Of a stretch of 64,000 nt of DNA, positions 4,119 through 61,105 are shown piece after piece; the stretch's first letter is position 1, and every line of letters begins with the position of its first letter. The position numbers and the translations under genes are program-made. The notes under the pieces are model-generated. The model saw only the letters and a list, made by a program, of their open reading frames with translations. It searched no databases and was not told the DNA's origin. The stretch is from Candidatus Woykebacteria bacterium (GTDB lineage: Bacteria; Patescibacteriota; Microgenomatia; Woykebacterales; RBG-16-39-9b). The stretch spans positions 33,619-97,618 of the forward strand of contig JBBDPM010000001.1 in the NCBI GenBank assembly GCA_040876345.1. Reading direction: 5' to 3'.

Positions 4119-5246
4119 ATGGATTTTTATGCGGAAGCTATCGCGCAAGCGAAGAAATTGGGTGGAAAAATAGAGATAAAGTCCAAAATCAAGATTCAAG
4201 ATAAGGAAGATTTGTCGATAGCTTACACGCCTGGTGTAGCTGGAGTATCTTTAGAAATAGCCAAAGATAGAAGTAAAGTCTGGGATTTAACAACTAAGGC
4301 AAATTCAGTCGCCGTAGTGTCGGATGGAAGTGCCGTTTTGGGACTTGGGGACATTGGGCCTGAGGCGGCACTGCCGGTAATGGAGGGTAAATGCGTTTTG
4401 TTTAAAGAATTTGCAAATGTTGATGCCTACCCTATTGTTCTAAACACAAAGAGTGTCGATGAAATTGTGTCGACAGTTTCAGCAATTGCTTCAGGTTTTG
4501 GAGGGATAAATCTAGAAGATATTTCTGCGCCACGTTGTTTTGAGATTGAAGACTCACTTCAAGATCTTGGTATTCCAGTGTTTCATGATGACCAACACGG
4601 TACGGCAATTGTGGTACTGGCCGCTTTGCTAAATTCACTTAAAGTGGTAGGTAAAGAATTGGACGATATCAAGGTAGTTATTTTTGGAGCTGGAGCGGCT
4701 GGATTGGCAGTTGCAAGAATTATCAATCCAGCCTCGATTGTCCTCATTGACTCTAAAGGGCCGATAAATTCTGAAAGGAAAGATCTGAATGACTATAAAG
4801 CAGAAATTTTGGCCGGCGAAAATTATCTTCAAGCTTCAACTTTGGAAGAAGCCTTTAGCGGGGCCGATGTTTTTATTGGCGTTTCTGGCAAAGGTAAGAT
4901 AGATCAAGGTCTTATCAAGCGGATGAATAAGAAGCCGATAATTTTCGCTCTTTCTAACCCAGATCCAGAGATTATGCCGGAAGAGGCAAAAAAGGCAGGG
5001 GCCTCTATTGTGGCAACTGGCAGGAGCGATTTTCCAAACCAAATAAATAATGTGCTTGCGTTTCCAGGAATTTTCCGGGGAGCTTTAGATAATAAAATTA
5101 AAAGAATCGATACAAAAATCAAGATAAAAGCAGCTGATGCTTTAGCAGGAATAGTCGAAAAACCAACCTCCGAGCAGATTTTGCCATCTCCATTCTCCAA
5201 AGAAGTTGTTAAGGTAGTAGCCACCGCGGTCAGAAATTATGATTAA
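4119..5246 (+). CDS. NAD(P)-dependent malic enzyme (short form)
   Basis: 375 aa; malic-enzyme signature region AYTPGVA..., Rossmann GAGAAG, ACT-less short architecture. Confidence 0.8.
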   Translation: MDFYAEAIAQAKKLGGKIEIKSKIKIQDKEDLSIAYTPGVAGVSLEIAKDRSKVWDLTTKANSVAVVSDGSAVLGLGDIGPEAALPVMEGKCVLFKEFANVDAYPIVLNTKSVDEIVSTVSAIASGFGGINLEDISAPRCFEIEDSLQDLGIPVFHDDQHGTAIVVLAALLNSLKVVGKELDDIKVVIFGAGAAGLAVARIINPASIVLIDSKGPINSERKDLNDYKAEILAGENYLQASTLEEAFSGADVFIGVSGKGKIDQGLIKRMNKKPIIFALSNPDPEIMPEEAKKAGASIVATGRSDFPNQINNVLAFPGIFRGALDNKIKRIDTKIKIKAADALAGIVEKPTSEQILPSPFSKEVVKVVATAVRNYD

Positions 5247-6354
5247 CCATGACAACCTTGGCCCAGAAAAGTTGTTGGAAGTTTACGATCCAAAAACTGG
5301 CATGAGAGGCCTTTTGGTAATTGATAACACTTGGCTTGGGGTGGGTAAAGGTGGTTTGAGGATGACTCCGAACGTTAGCCTCAAAGAAATTTTCCATTTG
5401 GCGCGGGTGATGACTTACAAAAACGCTTTAGCCGAACTACCATTTGGTGGGGCCAAATCTGGAATAATCGCCGATCCAAAGAAGATTTCCAAGGTAGAAA
5501 AATTTGAGCTTGTGCGGGCTTTCTCCAAAGCCATTAAAGATCTTTGCCCCTCTCTCTATGTTACTGGACCAGATGTTAACACAGGAGAGCGCGAGATGGC
5601 CGAGTTTGTGAGTGCTAATGGATCTCTAAAGTCCGCCACAGGGAAGCCAGCGGATATGTGTGTAAAACCTGGGGTTGAGTGTGGTATTCCCCATGAATTT
5701 GGCTCAACTGGATTCGGAGTGGTTCAAGCCACCTTGGAAGCAATCGAATTTTCAGGAAAAAAAGTCAAAGACATGAAGGTAGCAATTGCTGGGTTTGGTA
5801 ACGTTGGCACCTTTGCGGCAAGTCTTTTAGATAAGGAAGGAGCAAAAATTGTAGCTATATCTGATAGCTCAGGAACAACTTGTAATCCAAGCGGTTTAAA
5901 TGTCCAAAAAGTTTTTGATGTTAAAAAGGAAAAAGGAAGTGCTGGCGAAAATCCGGATGGGGAAAAATTGAGGCCAGAAGAAATCTATGGTTTGGAGGTT
6001 GATATTCTTATTCCAGCCTCTTTAGGCGGGGTTATAAATGAAACTAATGCAGGTGCGGTGAGATCAAAAATAATTGTGGAAGCTGCAAATCTACCAGTTA
6101 GTAAGGAAGCAGAGGAAGAGCTAAACAAGCGCAATATTTTAATTATTCCCGATATTATTGCCAATGCGGGTGGAGTTGTCTCTTCCTACGCCGAGTATCG
6201 GGGTTATAACCCAAAACAAATGTTTAAGCTAGTTGAGAGGAAAATTAAGAAAAATGTTAAAATGATTTTGGAAAAATCAAAAGAAGAAAAAAAGACCCCT
6301 CGCGAAGCTGCGTTAGAAATTGCTACCGAAAGATTAAATAAATCCCGCACCTAG
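5239..6354 (+). CDS. Glu/Leu/Phe/Val dehydrogenase family protein (glutamate dehydrogenase-like)
   Basis: 371 aa; catalytic-lysine motif LPFGGAKSGI, NAD-binding GFGNVG. Confidence 0.8.
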   Translation: MINHDNLGPEKLLEVYDPKTGMRGLLVIDNTWLGVGKGGLRMTPNVSLKEIFHLARVMTYKNALAELPFGGAKSGIIADPKKISKVEKFELVRAFSKAIKDLCPSLYVTGPDVNTGEREMAEFVSANGSLKSATGKPADMCVKPGVECGIPHEFGSTGFGVVQATLEAIEFSGKKVKDMKVAIAGFGNVGTFAASLLDKEGAKIVAISDSSGTTCNPSGLNVQKVFDVKKEKGSAGENPDGEKLRPEEIYGLEVDILIPASLGGVINETNAGAVRSKIIVEAANLPVSKEAEEELNKRNILIIPDIIANAGGVVSSYAEYRGYNPKQMFKLVERKIKKNVKMILEKSKEEKKTPREAALEIATERLNKSRT

Positions 6355-6494: not shown

Positions 6495-6896
6495 GTGAAT
6501 TACGGTATTCTGCTCAGAATGGAAGAGCGTCCAGGCGGCTCAATGATGAGCGTTGGGCATATCCCGGTAGAAGCCAGGGGACTCTCAGAAGCGACTCGTG
6601 CCGCCTCCCGACTTCTGGCGGAGGGCAAGATCCAAATACCAGCGCCGTTGAAGAGTCTCTGGAAGACAATCTCGATGGGCGGACACATCGTGGAAGCCGA
6701 ACCTGGTGTGTGGGTAGACGCAGATGACTATGAGAAGATCCTTCATTGGACACCTCCGCTGCCCCGCATTCTACTACGGGTTCTTTCCCGATGGATCGAA
6801 CCACAGACGAATCTGAAAAGGAGTCAGATGATGGCGGCACTTGTCGGGACAGGTTGGGGTGACGCAGAACAGGCTTTCGTTTCTATCCTTCGTTAG
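6495..6896 (+). CDS. hypothetical protein, GC-rich, GTG start with strong Shine-Dalgarno (GAAGGAGGG 5 nt upstream)
   Basis: 133-aa ORF; local GC ~58% versus ~40% flanks; consensus SD; antisense ORFs in same span are low-complexity artefacts of GC-richness. Confidence 0.45.
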   Translation: MNYGILLRMEERPGGSMMSVGHIPVEARGLSEATRAASRLLAEGKIQIPAPLKSLWKTISMGGHIVEAEPGVWVDADDYEKILHWTPPLPRILLRVLSRWIEPQTNLKRSQMMAALVGTGWGDAEQAFVSILR

Positions 6897-7054: not shown

Positions 7055-7468
7055 ATGCCGACGATAACGCAGCTTGTTCGAAAAGGTAGAAAAAAGGTAG
7101 GCAAAAAAGTTAAGGCCACTGCTTTGCGTGGCTCTTTTAATGCAACGGCCAGGAGAACTACTCCAACTTTTAACCCCCAAAAAAGGGGTGTTTGTGTGGT
7201 GGTAAAGACAATGACTCCAAAGAAACCAAACTCAGCCCTTCGAAAAGTGGCCAGAGTCCGGCTCTCCAATCGGAAAGAAATTACTGCTTACATCCCAGGA
7301 ATTGGACACAGCCTGCAAGAGCACTCAATTGTTTTGGTTCGAGGCGGTAGAGTTAAAGACCTTCCGGGTGTTAAGTACCATGTTATAAGAGGCCATTACG
7401 ATACCGGTGGAGTTGAGGGCAGAAAACAAAGTAGAAGTTTGTACGGGACGAAACAACCCAAAGAGTAA
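7055..7468 (+). CDS. rpsL: 30S ribosomal protein S12
   Basis: 137 aa; [11 protein letters not shown]... canonical S12. Confidence 0.97.
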
Positions 7469-53308: not shown

Positions 53309-53575
53309 ATGAAAAGAACTCAAGTTTACTTCTCAGAAGCAACGATAGAAATTATTAAACGGGAGGCCAAAGAGAATAACACTACGATGGCCGCGGTCAT
53401 ACGCGAGAAAGTAGAAAAAGAGACAAAGAAACCAGCCGAAAAAGGGATAAATGACGCGCTAAAAGCAGTAAAAGAAATCTCCAATCTTAGGTTGCCTACT
53501 ATGCACCCTGCCAAAATGAAGGAGATCCTCGCCGAATCCCACGGAAGGACCTATGACATATTATCTGGACGCTAA
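53309..53575 (+). CDS. ribbon-helix-helix (CopG/VapB-like) antitoxin
   Basis: 88 aa; RTQVYFSEATIEIIKREA N-terminal RHH. Confidence 0.65.
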   Translation: MKRTQVYFSEATIEIIKREAKENNTTMAAVIREKVEKETKKPAEKGINDALKAVKEISNLRLPTMHPAKMKEILAESHGRTYDILSGR

Positions 53576-53969
53576 TATTTTTATTTACGCAAGCAATCCT
53601 GACGATCCCAATTTTGAAACTTGCTCAAGTATCTTAAAAAGAGTTGGTTTAAGAGAAATTAAGGCCGTAACTTCAACTGAGACGATTCAGGAGATTATTT
53701 TCTACTCTCAAAAATTTAAAAATGTAAAGGCAGGAATTGCAATTGCAAGCGGAGCGTTAAAAATCGCCCATCAAATTCTGTCTATTGATCTTAATGTAAC
53801 CCACAGGTATTTAGATCTGGTAGCCTTATACCCAAATATTGACAGCCGGGACAATCTACATACCGCAACTTGTCTGGTTAATAATATAGACACTATAGTC
53901 TCCGCTGATAAATCACTAGACAAAATCAAAGAAATAAAACGGGTGGATCCGAAGATTTTTATTCCTTAA
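53553..53969 (+). CDS. PIN-domain toxin (VapC-like)
   Basis: 138 aa; YYLDANIFIYA start; 23-bp overlap with antitoxin. Confidence 0.7.
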   Translation: MTYYLDANIFIYASNPDDPNFETCSSILKRVGLREIKAVTSTETIQEIIFYSQKFKNVKAGIAIASGALKIAHQILSIDLNVTHRYLDLVALYPNIDSRDNLHTATCLVNNIDTIVSADKSLDKIKEIKRVDPKIFIP

Positions 53970-54000: not shown

Positions 54001-54435
54001 ATGAAAAATACCACCAAAAAAACCGCGGCTGGCAAGACATTCACGGACGAGGAACGAGCCGCGATGAAGGAGCGTATCCAAGAGCTGAGGGCGGACAAAA
54101 CGGACGGGGAAAGCGACGTGCTCGCAAAGATCGCCGAGATGCCGGAACCGGATCGCGCCATGGGCAAGCGGCTCCATGCTATCATCAAAGCCAGCGCGCC
54201 AGAACTCTTGCCGAAAACCTGGTACGGGATGCCCGCCTATGCCAACAAGGATGGCAAGGTTGTCTGCTTCTTCCAAAGCGCGCACAAGTTCAAATACAGA
54301 TACGCGACATTCGGCTTCAACGACGCGGCGAACCTAGACGAAGGCCACATGTGGCCGACCTCCTTCGCGCTGAAGGAGTTGACTGCCGCCGAAGAGGCAA
54401 AGATCGGCGCCCTCGTGAAGAAAGCGGTGAGCTGA
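54001..54435 (+). CDS. DUF1801 (YdhG-like) domain protein, GC-rich (foreign composition)
   Basis: 144 aa; local GC ~58%; YdhG-like pattern. Confidence 0.6.
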
Positions 54436-57021: not shown

Positions 57022-58050
57022 ATGGATACAAAAAAGATTGAAGCGATAAAAGCAGCCATGGGGGAAATTGAGAAACAATTTGGTAAAGGTTCTATTATGC
57101 AGCTTGGTGAAGCAGCCGCCAAAATGGATATCTCCGCAATTCCGACTGGCTCTTTAGGACTAGATCTTGCTTTGGGGATTGGTGGCCTTCCAAGGGGCAG
57201 AATAGTCGAAATCTTTGGTCCAGAAGGAGGCGGAAAAACTACACTAGCACTTCATGTAATTGCAGAGTCTCAAAAAAAGGGCGGAACCGCCGCTTTTATC
57301 GATGCCGAACACGCTTTGGATCCCTCTCGTGCTGAAAAAATCGGCGTAAATATTAAAGACCTTCTTGTTTCACAACCAGATACTGGTGAGCAAGCTCTGG
57401 AAATTGTCGAAACTTTAGTGAGAAGCGGGGCGCTTGATGTAGTGGTAGTAGACTCAGTTGCTGCGCTTGTGCCAAGAGCCGAAGTTGAGGGGGAGATGGG
57501 GGATTCTTTCATGGGAATTCAGGCTCGTCTTATGAGCCAGGCCATGAGAAAACTCGCTTCTGCAATTTCAAAATCTAGGACGTTGGCAATATTTATAAAT
57601 CAGCTCCGCGAAAAAATCGGCGTGATGTTTGGCAACCCAGAGGTTACTCCTGGTGGCCGGGCCTTAAAATTCTATTCTTCCGTTCGAATCGATATCCGTC
57701 GGATAGAATCCATAACTGATGGTCCTACTACTATTGGTAACAGAGTTCGAGCTAAAATCGTCAAAAACAAAGTTGCCCCACCTTTCCGCCAAGCAGAGTT
57801 TGACATAATGTTTGACCGGGGAATTTCGAGGGAAGGCTCGACCTTGGATGCTGCAGTTGAAACTGGCGTGATCAAAAAAACAGGTGGTTGGTTCTCTTAT
57901 GGAGAGCAAAACATCGCTCAAGGAAGAGAAGCTGCGAAGGGGTATTTGGAGGAACATGCTAAAGTAGCTTCCGAAGTTGAGAAAAAGGTAAAAGAAAATT
58001 ACGCAAAAGGTACCTCAGCTCCTCCTTCGAAAGAAGAAGAATCCGAATAG
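57022..58050 (+). CDS. recA: recombinase RecA
   Basis: 342 aa; Walker [11 protein letters not shown]1/L2 loops. Confidence 0.97.
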
Positions 58051-58060
58051 AGTCGGGGCC

Positions 58061-58090
58061 GCCTGAGAAGCGAGAGACTGCTTCTCAGGC
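58061..58090 (+). terminator. strong hairpin GCCTGAGAAGC-gagagact-GCTTCTCAGGC after recA (no U-tract)
   Basis: perfect 11-bp stem, 8-nt loop, immediately 3' of recA stop. Confidence 0.4.
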
Positions 58091-58123
58091 GTTGGCCAGC
58101 ACTCCTTCCCCTAAGCGTTACAA

Positions 58124-58516
58124 CTAGGCGACCAAGATGACATTGGTACTGCGCTTCATACCGAAGACGTCGGTGTGGAGGTTGTACCAATTCTCACTCC
58201 ACTTACCCCCGCCTTGTATGCTTCGACGAACTTGCCTGGCGCCTTTGGTCAGATCTCCAGCCAAGTAGACTTTGCTGTCGCCGTGTAGAACTTTGAAAAG
58301 CTCTCCAAGTTCAAGGTCGGCGAGCTTGAACACCAAGATCATCTTGGTGCCTGGTTCTATGGAAACTGTCTCCCCGTGCTCTTGGGTCTGGAAGATGGCG
58401 GGAGAGCCGTCCGAAGAAGGAGTGGTAAGTGTCCACACCTCGTTACCATCCGCAGCAACCACCCTGGACCCTTCTCTTAGATCTTTGACAGCCGTTGTTA
58501 ATGCTGTCGTTGGCAT
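58124..58516 (-). CDS. hypothetical protein, GC-rich foreign gene inserted between recA and recX (start at ATG after SD AGGAGGTG)
   Basis: 130 aa from MPTTALTT...; GC ~57%; consensus SD 4 nt upstream; upstream part of ORF 58124..58684 judged non-coding. Confidence 0.45.
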   Translation of the reverse strand: MPTTALTTAVKDLREGSRVVAADGNEVWTLTTPSSDGSPAIFQTQEHGETVSIEPGTKMILVFKLADLELGELFKVLHGDSKVYLAGDLTKGARQVRRSIQGGGKWSENWYNLHTDVFGMKRSTNVILVA

Positions 58517-58783
58517 GTGACACCTCCTACTTCCAGAACTCCCCCCCACCGCTTGGGCGGTTTTGGGGGTTGTTGAATGTTGGGCTTTTGGATGGTCAGC
58601 CTTCTCACCTGGTGGCCAGTCACGTTGAAACGCCCACTCCTGGTCATCGACCAAAATTTTGTCGCCAGGCGACAGCTGTCCCACGAACCTTAGTTCCGTT
58701 GGCGGCGTAATCTTACCCCTTTCCCGCGTCTGCGCTGATAGCCGAAACCTCCCCGCCTATGGGCCATCTTATACCACAATTGC

Positions 58784-58792
58784 ATGGTATAA
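58784..58792 (+). promoter_or_regulatory. extended -10 TGGTATAAT, ATG of recX 10 nt downstream (near-leaderless)
   Basis: TGGTATAAT then CAAGCGGAT then ATG 58803. Confidence 0.45.
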
Positions 58793-58802
58793 TCAAGCGG
58801 AT

Positions 58803-59480
58803 ATGAAAATTACTAATATTGAGCCGCAGAAGAAAAAGCAGCGGTTTAATATTTTTTTGAACGGGGAGTTTAGTTTTGGAGTATCGGCTGACGTGTTGTT
58901 TGAGGAAAAATTGAAAGTTGGAAGGGATTTGGATGAAAGTGAAGTATCCAAGGTAATCGAGCAAGATCAGACTAAGCGGCTGCTCGATAAATCCTTGAGA
59001 CTTTTGTCGTATAGGCCCCGCAGTGAAAAAGAAGTTCGTGATTATTTACTCCGCAAGCAAAAAATAAAGGAAATTGAAAAATCTGAAGTAGAAAAAGCCC
59101 AATATGAAAAATCAATTGAAAGAGTTATCAGTCGGCTTAAAGATTTAGATCAGATCGATGATAAAGAATTTGCTCTTTGGTGGGCCGAGCAGAGGAGTAA
59201 GTTTAAACCACTAGGGCAGAGTTTGATAAAGCTAGAGTTACGGCAGAAAGGAATCGATGTGGATATTATTGAGGAGGTAGCAAAAGGGGCACAGGGGACA
59301 GAAGAGACAAATGGTTCTGAAGTAGAACTAGCGAAAAAGGCGGCTCTTAAAAAATTGGGTAGTTACAAAAATTTAGAAAAAGCAGAATTTAGGGTTAAAA
59401 TGGGGCAGTTTTTAGCAAGAAGAGGTTTTAGCTGGGATATCATCAAAAAGGTCGTTGACACCCTTTCTAAAAAGGGGTAA
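58803..59480 (+). CDS. recX: recombination regulator RecX
   Basis: 225 aa from MKITNIEPQKKK; RecX three-helix-repeat pattern; recA-proximal. Confidence 0.8.
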   Translation: MKITNIEPQKKKQRFNIFLNGEFSFGVSADVLFEEKLKVGRDLDESEVSKVIEQDQTKRLLDKSLRLLSYRPRSEKEVRDYLLRKQKIKEIEKSEVEKAQYEKSIERVISRLKDLDQIDDKEFALWWAEQRSKFKPLGQSLIKLELRQKGIDVDIIEEVAKGAQGTEETNGSEVELAKKAALKKLGSYKNLEKAEFRVKMGQFLARRGFSWDIIKKVVDTLSKKG

Positions 59481-59620: not shown

Positions 59621-61105
59621 ATGGATCCTGCATTAATGGCAGTCGGAGCCCTGGTAGTTGGGGCGGTGGTAGGGTTTGCATATCAAAACTTTGTTAAGAA
59701 GCAAACCCCGCAAAAATCTTCGGAAAAAGTAAGTTCAACTGAATCTTCCACAAAAGAGATAATAATCGAAGCAAAGGATGAGGCTTATAAAATTAAGCGT
59801 GAAGCTGAGGAAGAAGCCCGTAAAATTCGGGAAGAAGTAATAAAGCTTGAAGCAAGATTAGCCTCTCAAGAAGAAAATATCGAAAGAAAAACGGGTGAAA
59901 TTGAGCAAAAGGAAAAAACTCTAACAAATAATCTAGATGAGGCAGAGAAAACAAGAGCCGAGCTTGTCACAAAATTGGAAAAGGTAGCTGGAGTCACCAG
60001 AGAAGAGGCAAAAAAGCTCATTGTTGATGCCACCGAATCTCACCTGAAAGAAGAAATCTCCAGAAGAATCAAAGAGGCTGAAGAGCAGATAAAGAAAGAG
60101 TCGAGTGAAAAAGCCAAGAACATTCTTATTGATGCGATGCAGCATGGGGCGACAGATTACGTGGCAGAATACACCACAAGTACCATGAAACTTACTGATG
60201 ATGACATGAAAGGCCGAATTATTGGTAAGGAAGGAAGAAATATAAAGGCCTTTGAGGTCGCAACCGGGGTTGATGTTGATCTGGACGATCCTGGTATTGT
60301 GCGGCTTTCTTCATTTGATGGGGAGCGAAGAGAAGTTGCCAAAGTTAGCCTTGAGAAGCTTATGGCTGATGGTCGGATTCAACCAACAAGAATTGAGGAA
60401 GTGGTGGAGAGGGTCCGTAAAGAATTTGAAAGGATACGACGTGAAGAAGGGGAAAAACTTGCAAACGAAGTCGGTGCTCCTAATCTGCCACTTGAGATAT
60501 TAGAAACTTTGGGAAGGTTCAAATGGCGTTTTTCCTACGGACAGAATCTTTGGCTTCACACTTTGGAAGAGACAAAAATCGGTATGGCAATTGCTAGAGA
60601 AGTTGGAGCGGACGTTAACATTGTCCGTCTTGGTTGTCTGTTCCACGATATTGGTAAAGTATTTACCCCAGAGCAAGAAGGTACTCATGTTCAGGTCGGA
60701 GCAGATTTTCTAAAAAAGTTCAAGTTTGACCAAAGAGTTTCGGCAGCCGTCGAAGAACACCATGAGGATAAGCCATTTTCTGGGGTCGAGTCGGTGATTG
60801 TCTGGATCGCTGATGCCATATCTGGTTCTAGGCCAGGAGCAAGGCACGAGGCAATAGAAGATTACATCAAGCGAGTTACCGAGATAGAAAATGTGGCCAG
60901 TTCCTTCCGAGGTGTAGAAAAGTCTTTCGCCATTGCGGCCGGCCGTGAAGTGCGGGTAATCGTCATTCCGGAGCAAATAAGCGATGCCGATCTTACAAAA
61001 CTTGCCCATGATGTTGCCAATAAAATCCACGATTCGATAACTTATCCAGGGCAAGTCAAAGTGACGGTGGTTCGCGAGACCCGAGCTGAGTCAGTAGCCA
61101 GATAG
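59621..61105 (+). CDS. rny: ribonuclease Y
   Basis: 494 aa; N-terminal TM, coiled coil, KH (GKEGRNIKAFE), HD (LFHDIGK). Confidence 0.93.
   Translation: MDPALMAVGALVVGAVVGFAYQNFVKKQTPQKSSEKVSSTESSTKEIIIEAKDEAYKIKREAEEEARKIREEVIKLEARLASQEENIERKTGEIEQKEKTLTNNLDEAEKTRAELVTKLEKVAGVTREEAKKLIVDATESHLKEEISRRIKEAEEQIKKESSEKAKNILIDAMQHGATDYVAEYTTSTMKLTDDDMKGRIIGKEGRNIKAFEVATGVDVDLDDPGIVRLSSFDGERREVAKVSLEKLMADGRIQPTRIEEVVERVRKEFERIRREEGEKLANEVGAPNLPLEILETLGRFKWRFSYGQNLWLHTLEETKIGMAIAREVGADVNIVRLGCLFHDIGKVFTPEQEGTHVQVGADFLKKFKFDQRVSAAVEEHHEDKPFSGVESVIVWIADAISGSRPGARHEAIEDYIKRVTEIENVASSFRGVEKSFAIAAGREVRVIVIPEQISDADLTKLAHDVANKIHDSITYPGQVKVTVVRETRAESVAR

Follow-up and report, generated by a model that had tools for sequence, protein, structure and literature searches.

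In the 64,000-nt stretch of Candidatus Woykebacteria DNA analysed here (hereafter the window), recA and recX flank a 752-nt spacer (58051-58802) with a guanine-plus-cytosine (GC) content of 54.5%. The left conserved flank is recA (57022-58050, plus strand, 342 amino acids (aa), Pfam RecA at 5e-135) and the right one is recX (58803-59480, plus strand, 225 aa, Pfam RecX HTH1/2/3), whose ATG at 58803 agrees with the family consensus start in the alignment; rny, assigned to RNase Y by Pfam, follows as a conserved neighbour downstream of recX (59621-61105, plus strand). Measured in 752-nt windows, mean GC over the stretch is 40.7% with a standard deviation of 3.4%, and the spacer is the maximum of the 64 kb, 4 standard deviations above the mean. 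Nucleotide identity to the closest relative, locus L003 (RecA 91%, RNase Y 87% and RecX 61% identical to those of the window), drops from 70-90% to about 30% directly past the recA stop codon and is back at about 58768. The interval in between, a variable cassette segment (58051-58767, no strand), is without nucleotide similarity to L003, and its sub-parts range from 53 to 60% GC. It contains a hairpin with a perfect 12-bp stem and an 8-nt loop (58060-58071 and 58080-58091) between recA and a convergent open reading frame (ORF), here called ORF130 (58124-58516, minus strand, 130 aa, ATG start), which we assign below to slot family A. A Shine-Dalgarno sequence, AGGAGGTG (58521-58528, minus strand), stands 4 nt ahead of the ORF130 ATG. 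The ORF130 frame is open for 210 codons, as far as 58756, and its upstream continuation (58517-58756, minus strand, 80 codons) includes a GTG at 58684; in this leader region a C7 run (58541-58547) and a G5 run around CCGC-TTGG-GCGG form an imperfect hairpin (58541-58569). Next to recX lies a conserved promoter block (58769-58793), made up of the palindrome TTATACCA-N8-TGGTATAA (58769-58792) and the predicted extended -10 element of recX, TGGTATAAT (58785-58793), which ends 9 nt ahead of the recX ATG. Much of this anatomy had been described in the original prediction, which took the segment for a foreign insertion: the minus-strand ORF with its Shine-Dalgarno sequence, the C7 run and recX's own extended -10 element were all recovered, the length of ~750 bp was right, the ~57% GC was an overestimate and the 11-bp perfect stem turned out to have 12 bp.

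The 752-nt segment is probably the window genome's copy of a variable gene slot between recA and recX that is specific to the Candidatus Woykebacteria lineage. RecX relatives were aligned, and with this alignment 160 loci were collected from genomes and metagenomes; a genome scan with a single RecX sequence had given no match. The order recA-recX-rny is kept in nearly all of these loci. recA and recX are separated by 260-855 nt in 25 of the 37 listed loci with RecA at least 74% identical to that of the window, and all but one of these long spacers are above the mean GC of their locus, by up to 10 points. In distant Microgenomates (Curtiss-, Shapiro-, Levybacteria and others) recA and recX are mostly 2-13 nt apart, which agrees with the earlier claim that the segment interrupts a recA-recX unit. 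In 16 of 18 distinct long spacers the minus strand carries the longest ORF, and slot contents amount to one or two genes of 70-136 codons. A literature search returned no paper joining recA, recX and Patescibacteria, and its matches to 'recA-recX intergenic' were irrelevant. Beyond rny, the conserved gene order extends to a ymdB-like phosphoesterase gene and HU (seen at locus L001), and the linkage of recA to rny and ymdB is like that of Firmicutes. Several records of metagenome-assembled genomes in our set (L003, L009, L013, L014, L016 and others) are titled 'uncultured Gammaproteobacteria', 'Nanoarchaeia archaeon' or 'Bathyarchaeia'; these labels are evidently wrong, the recA-recX-rny loci being clearly Woykebacteria- or Microgenomates-like.

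By itself, an ORF of 130 aa is weak evidence for a gene, as 7.8% of spacer shuffles contain one; a 210-codon open frame arises in 0.5% of them. A single-sequence search of an index of 5.8 billion proteins with ORF130 returned only itself, and phmmer against 1.84 billion cluster representatives gave P0002 as its sole non-self match. This 821-aa repeat protein (E = 9e-4) was rejected as a homologue, its score being inflated by five repeats and its alignment showing 27% identity with gaps. No match was found for ORF130 or its family in Pfam, NCBIfam, PHROGs, PADLOC or PDB sequences, an RVT_thumb match at E = 0.17 being noise, and none of the seven family A members matches the anti-phage defence hidden Markov models of PADLOC. 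The relatives of ORF130 emerged from the spacers themselves. The L003 spacer ORF aligns with it end to end (29% identity, Smith-Waterman z = 11.9, score reached by 0 of 2000 shuffles), and the shorter ORFs of L004, L085 and L092 (73-81 aa) match its C-terminal half, with z = 8.4 for L085 and 6.9 for L004, the L092 ORF being the top non-member match of the profile. A five-member profile recovered seven proteins in total from the 5.8 billion, none with a Pfam domain. Genomic context is readable for six of the seven (window, L003, L085, L092, L163 and L164) and all six are convergent to recA; the seventh, P0125, lies on a 524-nt contig and is outside this count. Between the window and L003 synonymous sites of the slot gene are saturated (proportion of synonymous differences, pS, 0.81) and the protein alignment persists, so the similarity has been retained at the protein level. 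Between L085 and L163 the nonsynonymous to synonymous ratio (dN/dS) of the slot gene is about 0.4, and GGAGG-like ribosome-binding sites also precede the homologues in L085, L092, L163 and L164. On account of this homology, the kept protein alignment at saturated synonymous sites, the dN/dS and the ribosome-binding sites, ORF130 is, as judged from comparison of the sequences, a genuine and weakly constrained protein gene that is confined to the recA-recX slot.

The ORFs of long spacers outside family A make up at least seven more groups, none of them detectably related to it. Comparison of the slot ORF families (A to K) by phmmer and hhalign revealed no links except a short Trp/Arg/Lys-rich tail connecting F with K. 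Similar tails, such as RPWQFWKR, RWWRFWKRR and LWRGLWRAFKVW, were noted in families D, F and K (slot ORFs of L005, L086 and L101 and the second ORF of L114). The slot can carry two cassettes, since the spacers of L008, L110 and L114 (753-855 nt) have two minus-strand ORFs (104-128 aa) in succession. A different state is seen in L099, whose flanks are 94% and whose spacer is 77% identical to those of L101: its slot ORF is truncated (76 vs 97 aa; proportion of nonsynonymous differences, pN, 0.28; pS 0.42), which suggests a decaying cassette.

Whatever the cassette, conservation within the spacer is limited to the 35 nt ahead of recX. A 27-nt block there is 93% identical between the window and L003, TGnTATAAT stands 9-12 nt before the recX start in most long-spacer lineages, and the -10 element together with the left arm of the palindrome recurs in L003, L004, L085, L086, L101, L099, L103 and L138. 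We read TGGTATAAT as the predicted extended -10 of a sigma-70-type promoter for recX at a conserved position. Because only 9-12 nt separate the -10 element from the start codon and no Shine-Dalgarno sequence is seen in the recX start region (58785-58805 and relatives), the recX mRNA is probably leaderless or near-leaderless in this clade. In the window and many relatives the right arm of the palindrome coincides with this -10 element, and its left arm, which reads TGGTATAAG on the minus strand and looks like an extended -10 there, would probably drive the slot gene divergently; the palindrome could thus be either a compact divergent promoter or an operator. A second type of recX upstream region occurs in L005, L100 and L110, where an inverted repeat, ATCTCG-N13-15-CGAGAT, about 40 nt before recX stands in for the TTATACCA palindrome and its right arm enters the TATAAT box. 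At the other end of the spacer, hairpins like that of the window follow recA in most of 18 folded loci, usually without a U-tract. The 12-bp perfect stem was found in 0 of 2000 spacer shuffles (fold z = -2.6) and is likely to be a terminator for both recA and ORF130, although no T-run follows it on either strand as an intrinsic terminator would have. In L004, L005, L086, L092 and L164 the 5' arm of the hairpin past recA consists of a AAGCCGCC-like motif, with a similar sequence at 58057-58064 in the window; the 3' arms of these hairpins differ, as do the cassettes among lineages, and the motif may mark a recombination boundary or be a terminator arm that has been conserved. Uncoupling of recX from recA transcription, as originally suggested, is a reasonable inference given the strong hairpin past recA and the conserved -10 element of recX itself: the comparative support is there, and recX would have left the recA-recX operon to be transcribed alone, on a nearly leaderless mRNA.

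How the slot evolves can be seen in pairs of loci with closely similar backbones. L086 and L163 have RecA proteins of 97% aa identity, with nucleotide identity of 90-100% at the 3' end of recA and 80-98% in recX, yet their slot genes belong to different families (D in L086, A in L163), and identity across the spacer is at the random level of about 30%. The drop falls exactly at the recA stop codon and the recovery about 90 nt ahead of recX. The same pattern is seen between L085 (family A) and L005 (family D), whose RecA proteins are 95% identical. Judging by these breakpoints, slot content is exchanged by replacement within the clade. Homologous recombination in the conserved flanks, with DNA taken up from other Woykebacteria, is the simplest and the likely mechanism for the replacement of one cassette by another.

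The principal alternative is a fast-evolving orphan inherited vertically, in which the spacer was gained once in the ancestor of Woykebacteria and its ORFs then diverged with no exchange. Most pairs behave as vertical descent would have it, with slot gene pS matching the flanks and high pN (0.10-0.46): slot pS is 0.68 vs 0.73-0.81 in L013/L102, 0.73 vs 0.74-0.79 for recA and recX in L005/L086 (0.43 for rny), and likewise close to the flanks in L006/L008. Family A also groups with the RecA clade of the window (window, L003, L164 and L004). Against this, the family occurs in two separate RecA clades and is interleaved with family D on the RecA tree, albeit in a small sample, and its gene in L085/L163 has a pS of 0.28 vs 0.69 for recA. 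Pure vertical descent is ruled out because the two backbone pairs above carry unrelated, unalignable cassettes next to near-identical recA ends, and we regard an orphan without exchange as unlikely.

What the cassettes encode bears on a further possibility. AlphaFold2 (AF2) models from seven family A sequences are confident and all-beta, both for ORF130 (predicted local distance difference test, pLDDT, 82.7; predicted template modelling score, pTM, 0.72) and for a 75-aa single-domain homologue (pLDDT 93.4, pTM 0.80). Foldseek comparison of the tandem model with the PDB returned EF-P/eIF5A, the Spt5 KOW-KOW pair, kin17 and the tandem Tudor of 53BP1 (best E = 0.017), and that of the single-domain model returned PWWP, the uL2 barrel and the Tudor domain of UvrD (best E = 0.7); all are weak, yet they are uniformly SH3-like barrels (template modelling (TM) scores 0.3-0.57). 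Against BFVD, the tandem model found uncharacterised small phage proteins, at best with E = 5e-4. Family A is predicted to form two SH3/KOW/Tudor-like barrels in tandem (window, L003) or one in the short forms. The N-terminal half of ORF130 scores a marginal 9 bits with the C-domain profile, which makes an internal duplication suggestive, not proven. Our best guess from the models is that ORF130 is an accessory, strain-variable protein that binds nucleic acid or another protein and evolves under relaxed or diversifying selection; it seems unlikely to be a housekeeping partner of RecA, and a role directed at RecA/RecX or at phage conflict is possible. In its strongest form, the slot would be a locus of diversifying selection whose barrel proteins act on the RecA filament, RecX and the SOS machinery or on invading DNA and phage, with non-homologous alleles (idiomorphs) tied to recA. 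This is a speculative extension to which we give a low probability. If true, alternative idiomorphs in ultra-small, DNA-scavenging strains of the Candidate Phyla Radiation (CPR) would make up a module of a new class, linked to RecA and serving conflict or regulation.

A recent horizontal import from a GC-rich organism into the recA-recX operon of the window genome in particular is what composition alone would suggest. Besides the extreme GC of the spacer, GC at third codon positions (GC3) is 0.60 in ORF130 vs 0.36-0.38 in recA, recX and rny, and the genome holds at least one foreign-looking GC-rich gene elsewhere. Synteny largely refutes this reading, which we consider quite improbable. Homologues of ORF130 occupy the same slot in the same orientation in six other lineages (L003, L004, L085, L092, L163 and L164), nothing similar was found elsewhere, and the spacers of relatives are likewise long and GC-enriched. 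GC3 of the slot gene exceeds that of the flanks by 0.15-0.29 in five of seven lineages, the window among them (0.51 vs 0.22-0.31 in L004, 0.63 vs 0.45-0.51 in L085, 0.59 vs 0.36-0.47 in L092, 0.48 vs 0.29-0.35 in L164); it is 0.54 vs 0.40-0.51 in L163, and L003 shows no excess (0.44 vs 0.39-0.45). Host and slot-gene GC vary together, 3 to 12 points apart. In most of the long-spacer lineages examined, raised GC characterises both the slot and the genes in it, and it is no mark of recent import. Some continuing force must lie behind the offset, because the saturated synonymous sites exclude an ancient import that has not been ameliorated. The spacer ends show no flanking direct repeats or terminal inverted repeats, and the Pfam families listed for the neighbouring genes include no integrase or transposase. 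No outside donor can be named, since neither the 5.8 billion proteins nor the 1.84 billion representatives contain a homologue outside the slot. The original prediction of an insertion peculiar to this genome therefore does not hold. Relatives do share the gene, in place and in orientation, though with a composition that is GC-enriched there too, and the word 'foreign' survives only to the extent that cassettes appear to be traded between Woykebacteria lineages.

Two other GC-rich islets were noted in the window. A DUF1801 gene (54001-54435, plus strand, 144 aa, GC 57.5%, GC3 0.76) immediately follows a VapBC-like pair (RHH 53309-53575, PIN 53553-53969), and its product is 60-73% identical to Deinococcus, Arthrobacter and Streptomyces proteins on plasmid records. 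A real transfer from a high-GC donor is far more plausible for this gene than for the one between recA and recX. The other islet (6495-6896, plus strand, 54.7% GC) holds an ORF of 133 aa that starts with GTG and has an AGGAGG site; no Pfam, NCBIfam or PHROG family could be assigned to it, and the NCBI annotation has only a 73-aa product there. It sits between a gene for a Glu/Leu/Phe/Val-type dehydrogenase (5239-6354) and a gene starting at 7056 that, by eye, we take to resemble rpsL.

The segment might also act as regulatory DNA or as an RNA that does not code for protein, for example a structured leader, a 3' untranslated region or an RNA antisense to recA or recX, with the ORF as a by-product of high GC. 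GC-rich islands of AT-rich genomes are often structured RNAs, the chance frequency of a 130-aa ORF given above is compatible with this, and the 244 nt between the promoter block and the ORF130 start (57% GC) are non-coding-like. The frame running through them (58517-58756) has GC of 0.61/0.56/0.55 by codon position, thus no periodicity, and no similarity to other slot ORFs. L003 has no counterpart, with just 94 nt between its ORF and recX, and 58517-58756 probably serves as a 5' leader and does not code for protein. Its 'GDKIL' resemblance to families D and F had raised the possibilities of an N-terminal extension and of a second cassette in decay, and both were rejected in view of the missing periodicity and of alignments none of which exceeded z = 3. 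Still, the fold energy of the leader is ordinary (z = -0.32), and Rfam gave only a tRNA elsewhere when the whole window was scanned at gathering thresholds and, for the spacer at E up to 1, a single noise match (E = 0.93) at the C7/G5 imperfect hairpin. Relatives share conservation at the protein and not at the nucleotide level in the spacer, and ORF130 has a Shine-Dalgarno sequence, codon-position GC periodicity (0.55/0.44/0.60) and the confident AF2 folds, all of which makes an RNA or regulatory element highly improbable. Finally, a GC-rich fragment of another organism mis-joined into the contig, as the sharp compositional step in a metagenome-assembled genome could suggest, has a negligible probability: the segment is real and not an assembly artefact, because a protein identical to ORF130 has three NCBI accessions on three contigs of up to 469 kb and the identical locus with the same neighbours is also present in Logan assemblies of SRR27977662, while the locus (also GCA_040903525.1, contig JBBDVF010000004.1) has native sequence on both sides within a 375-kb contig and relatives show the same architecture.

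Several points weigh against a slot with exchangeable cassettes, or against parts of that interpretation. The swap is seen in two backbone pairs only, on short metagenome contigs that may include strain chimeras. As families B to K are not detectably related to A, what we call many cassettes could partly be extreme divergence, an alternative excluded only where the flanks are near-identical. The closest relative, L003, is without GC3 excess, so the GC offset is not universal, and the window has the most extreme offset (+14 points). Selection, biased gene conversion and repeated exchange are all candidate causes of the GC enrichment. L103 keeps the left arm of the palindrome in a 103-nt spacer that has no room for a gene, and the arm may serve as an operator and not as a second promoter. 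The assignments of promoter, terminator and leaderless mRNA draw on sequence and conservation only, and the functional guess for ORF130 on a generic fold.

The locus illustrates that a compositional island is by itself insufficient to call horizontal transfer, as the foreign-looking gene is here a resident of a slot that is probably lineage-specific. It also yields a previously undescribed and very narrow protein family, with seven members among 5.8 billion proteins, no Pfam domain and a confident model of a novel small barrel, and in a CPR lineage it points to a replaceable gene slot of miniature size, set between two recombination genes. CPR organisms are uncultured and are thought to depend on DNA uptake, and cassette swaps in near-identical backbones would be direct sequence evidence of homologous gene replacement among them. 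The comparison further documents the split of an ancestral recA-recX operon, recX having gained a promoter that is conserved and apparently leaderless. In practical terms the locus is of modest importance, unless its cassettes turn out to target RecA or phage.

Set beside known systems, the locus departs first from the recA-recX operon of Mycobacterium, Streptomyces and Xanthomonas, in which the two genes are co-transcribed and adjacent or overlapping. The window has the same two genes in the same order and on the same strand, but they are kept from adjacency by the 752-nt spacer with its antisense ORF, hairpin and TGGTATAAT, and in most Woykebacteria they lie 260-855 nt apart, with an antisense gene, a post-recA hairpin and a -10 element belonging to recX. 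The predicted all-beta topology of family A resembles that of SH3-like small barrels (KOW domains of Spt5/NusG, the N-domain of EF-P/eIF5A, the kin17 tandem, Tudor/PWWP and uL2), although the structural matches are weak and no Pfam, NCBIfam or PDB sequence match accompanies them. Phage SH3-like barrel proteins such as BFVD A0A1J0MF02 of Pectobacterium phage PP101 are alike in size and barrel fold (E = 5e-4, TM 0.47-0.52), whereas sequence identity is 11-24%, ORF130 has no PHROG match and the immediate neighbours of the slot in the window include no recognisable phage gene. Integron cassettes resemble the slot in having a small ORF followed by an inverted repeat and interchangeable contents at a fixed site. 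We rejected them on anatomy: there is a single slot and no array, the hairpin is a simple perfect stem without the extrahelical bases of attC, and the breakpoints fall at gene ends as for homologous replacement; no GTTRRRY core was seen, although no dedicated attC or intI search was made. The closest parallel is with flexible genomic islets, strain-variable slots with conserved flanks that are replaced by homologous recombination, as in O-antigen and capsule loci and other replacement islands. The recA-recX slot shares with them the conserved flanks, the sharp boundaries, the unrelated contents in near-identical backbones and the confinement of these contents to the site, and it differs in being tiny and in lying inside a pair of DNA-repair genes of an ultra-small CPR genome.

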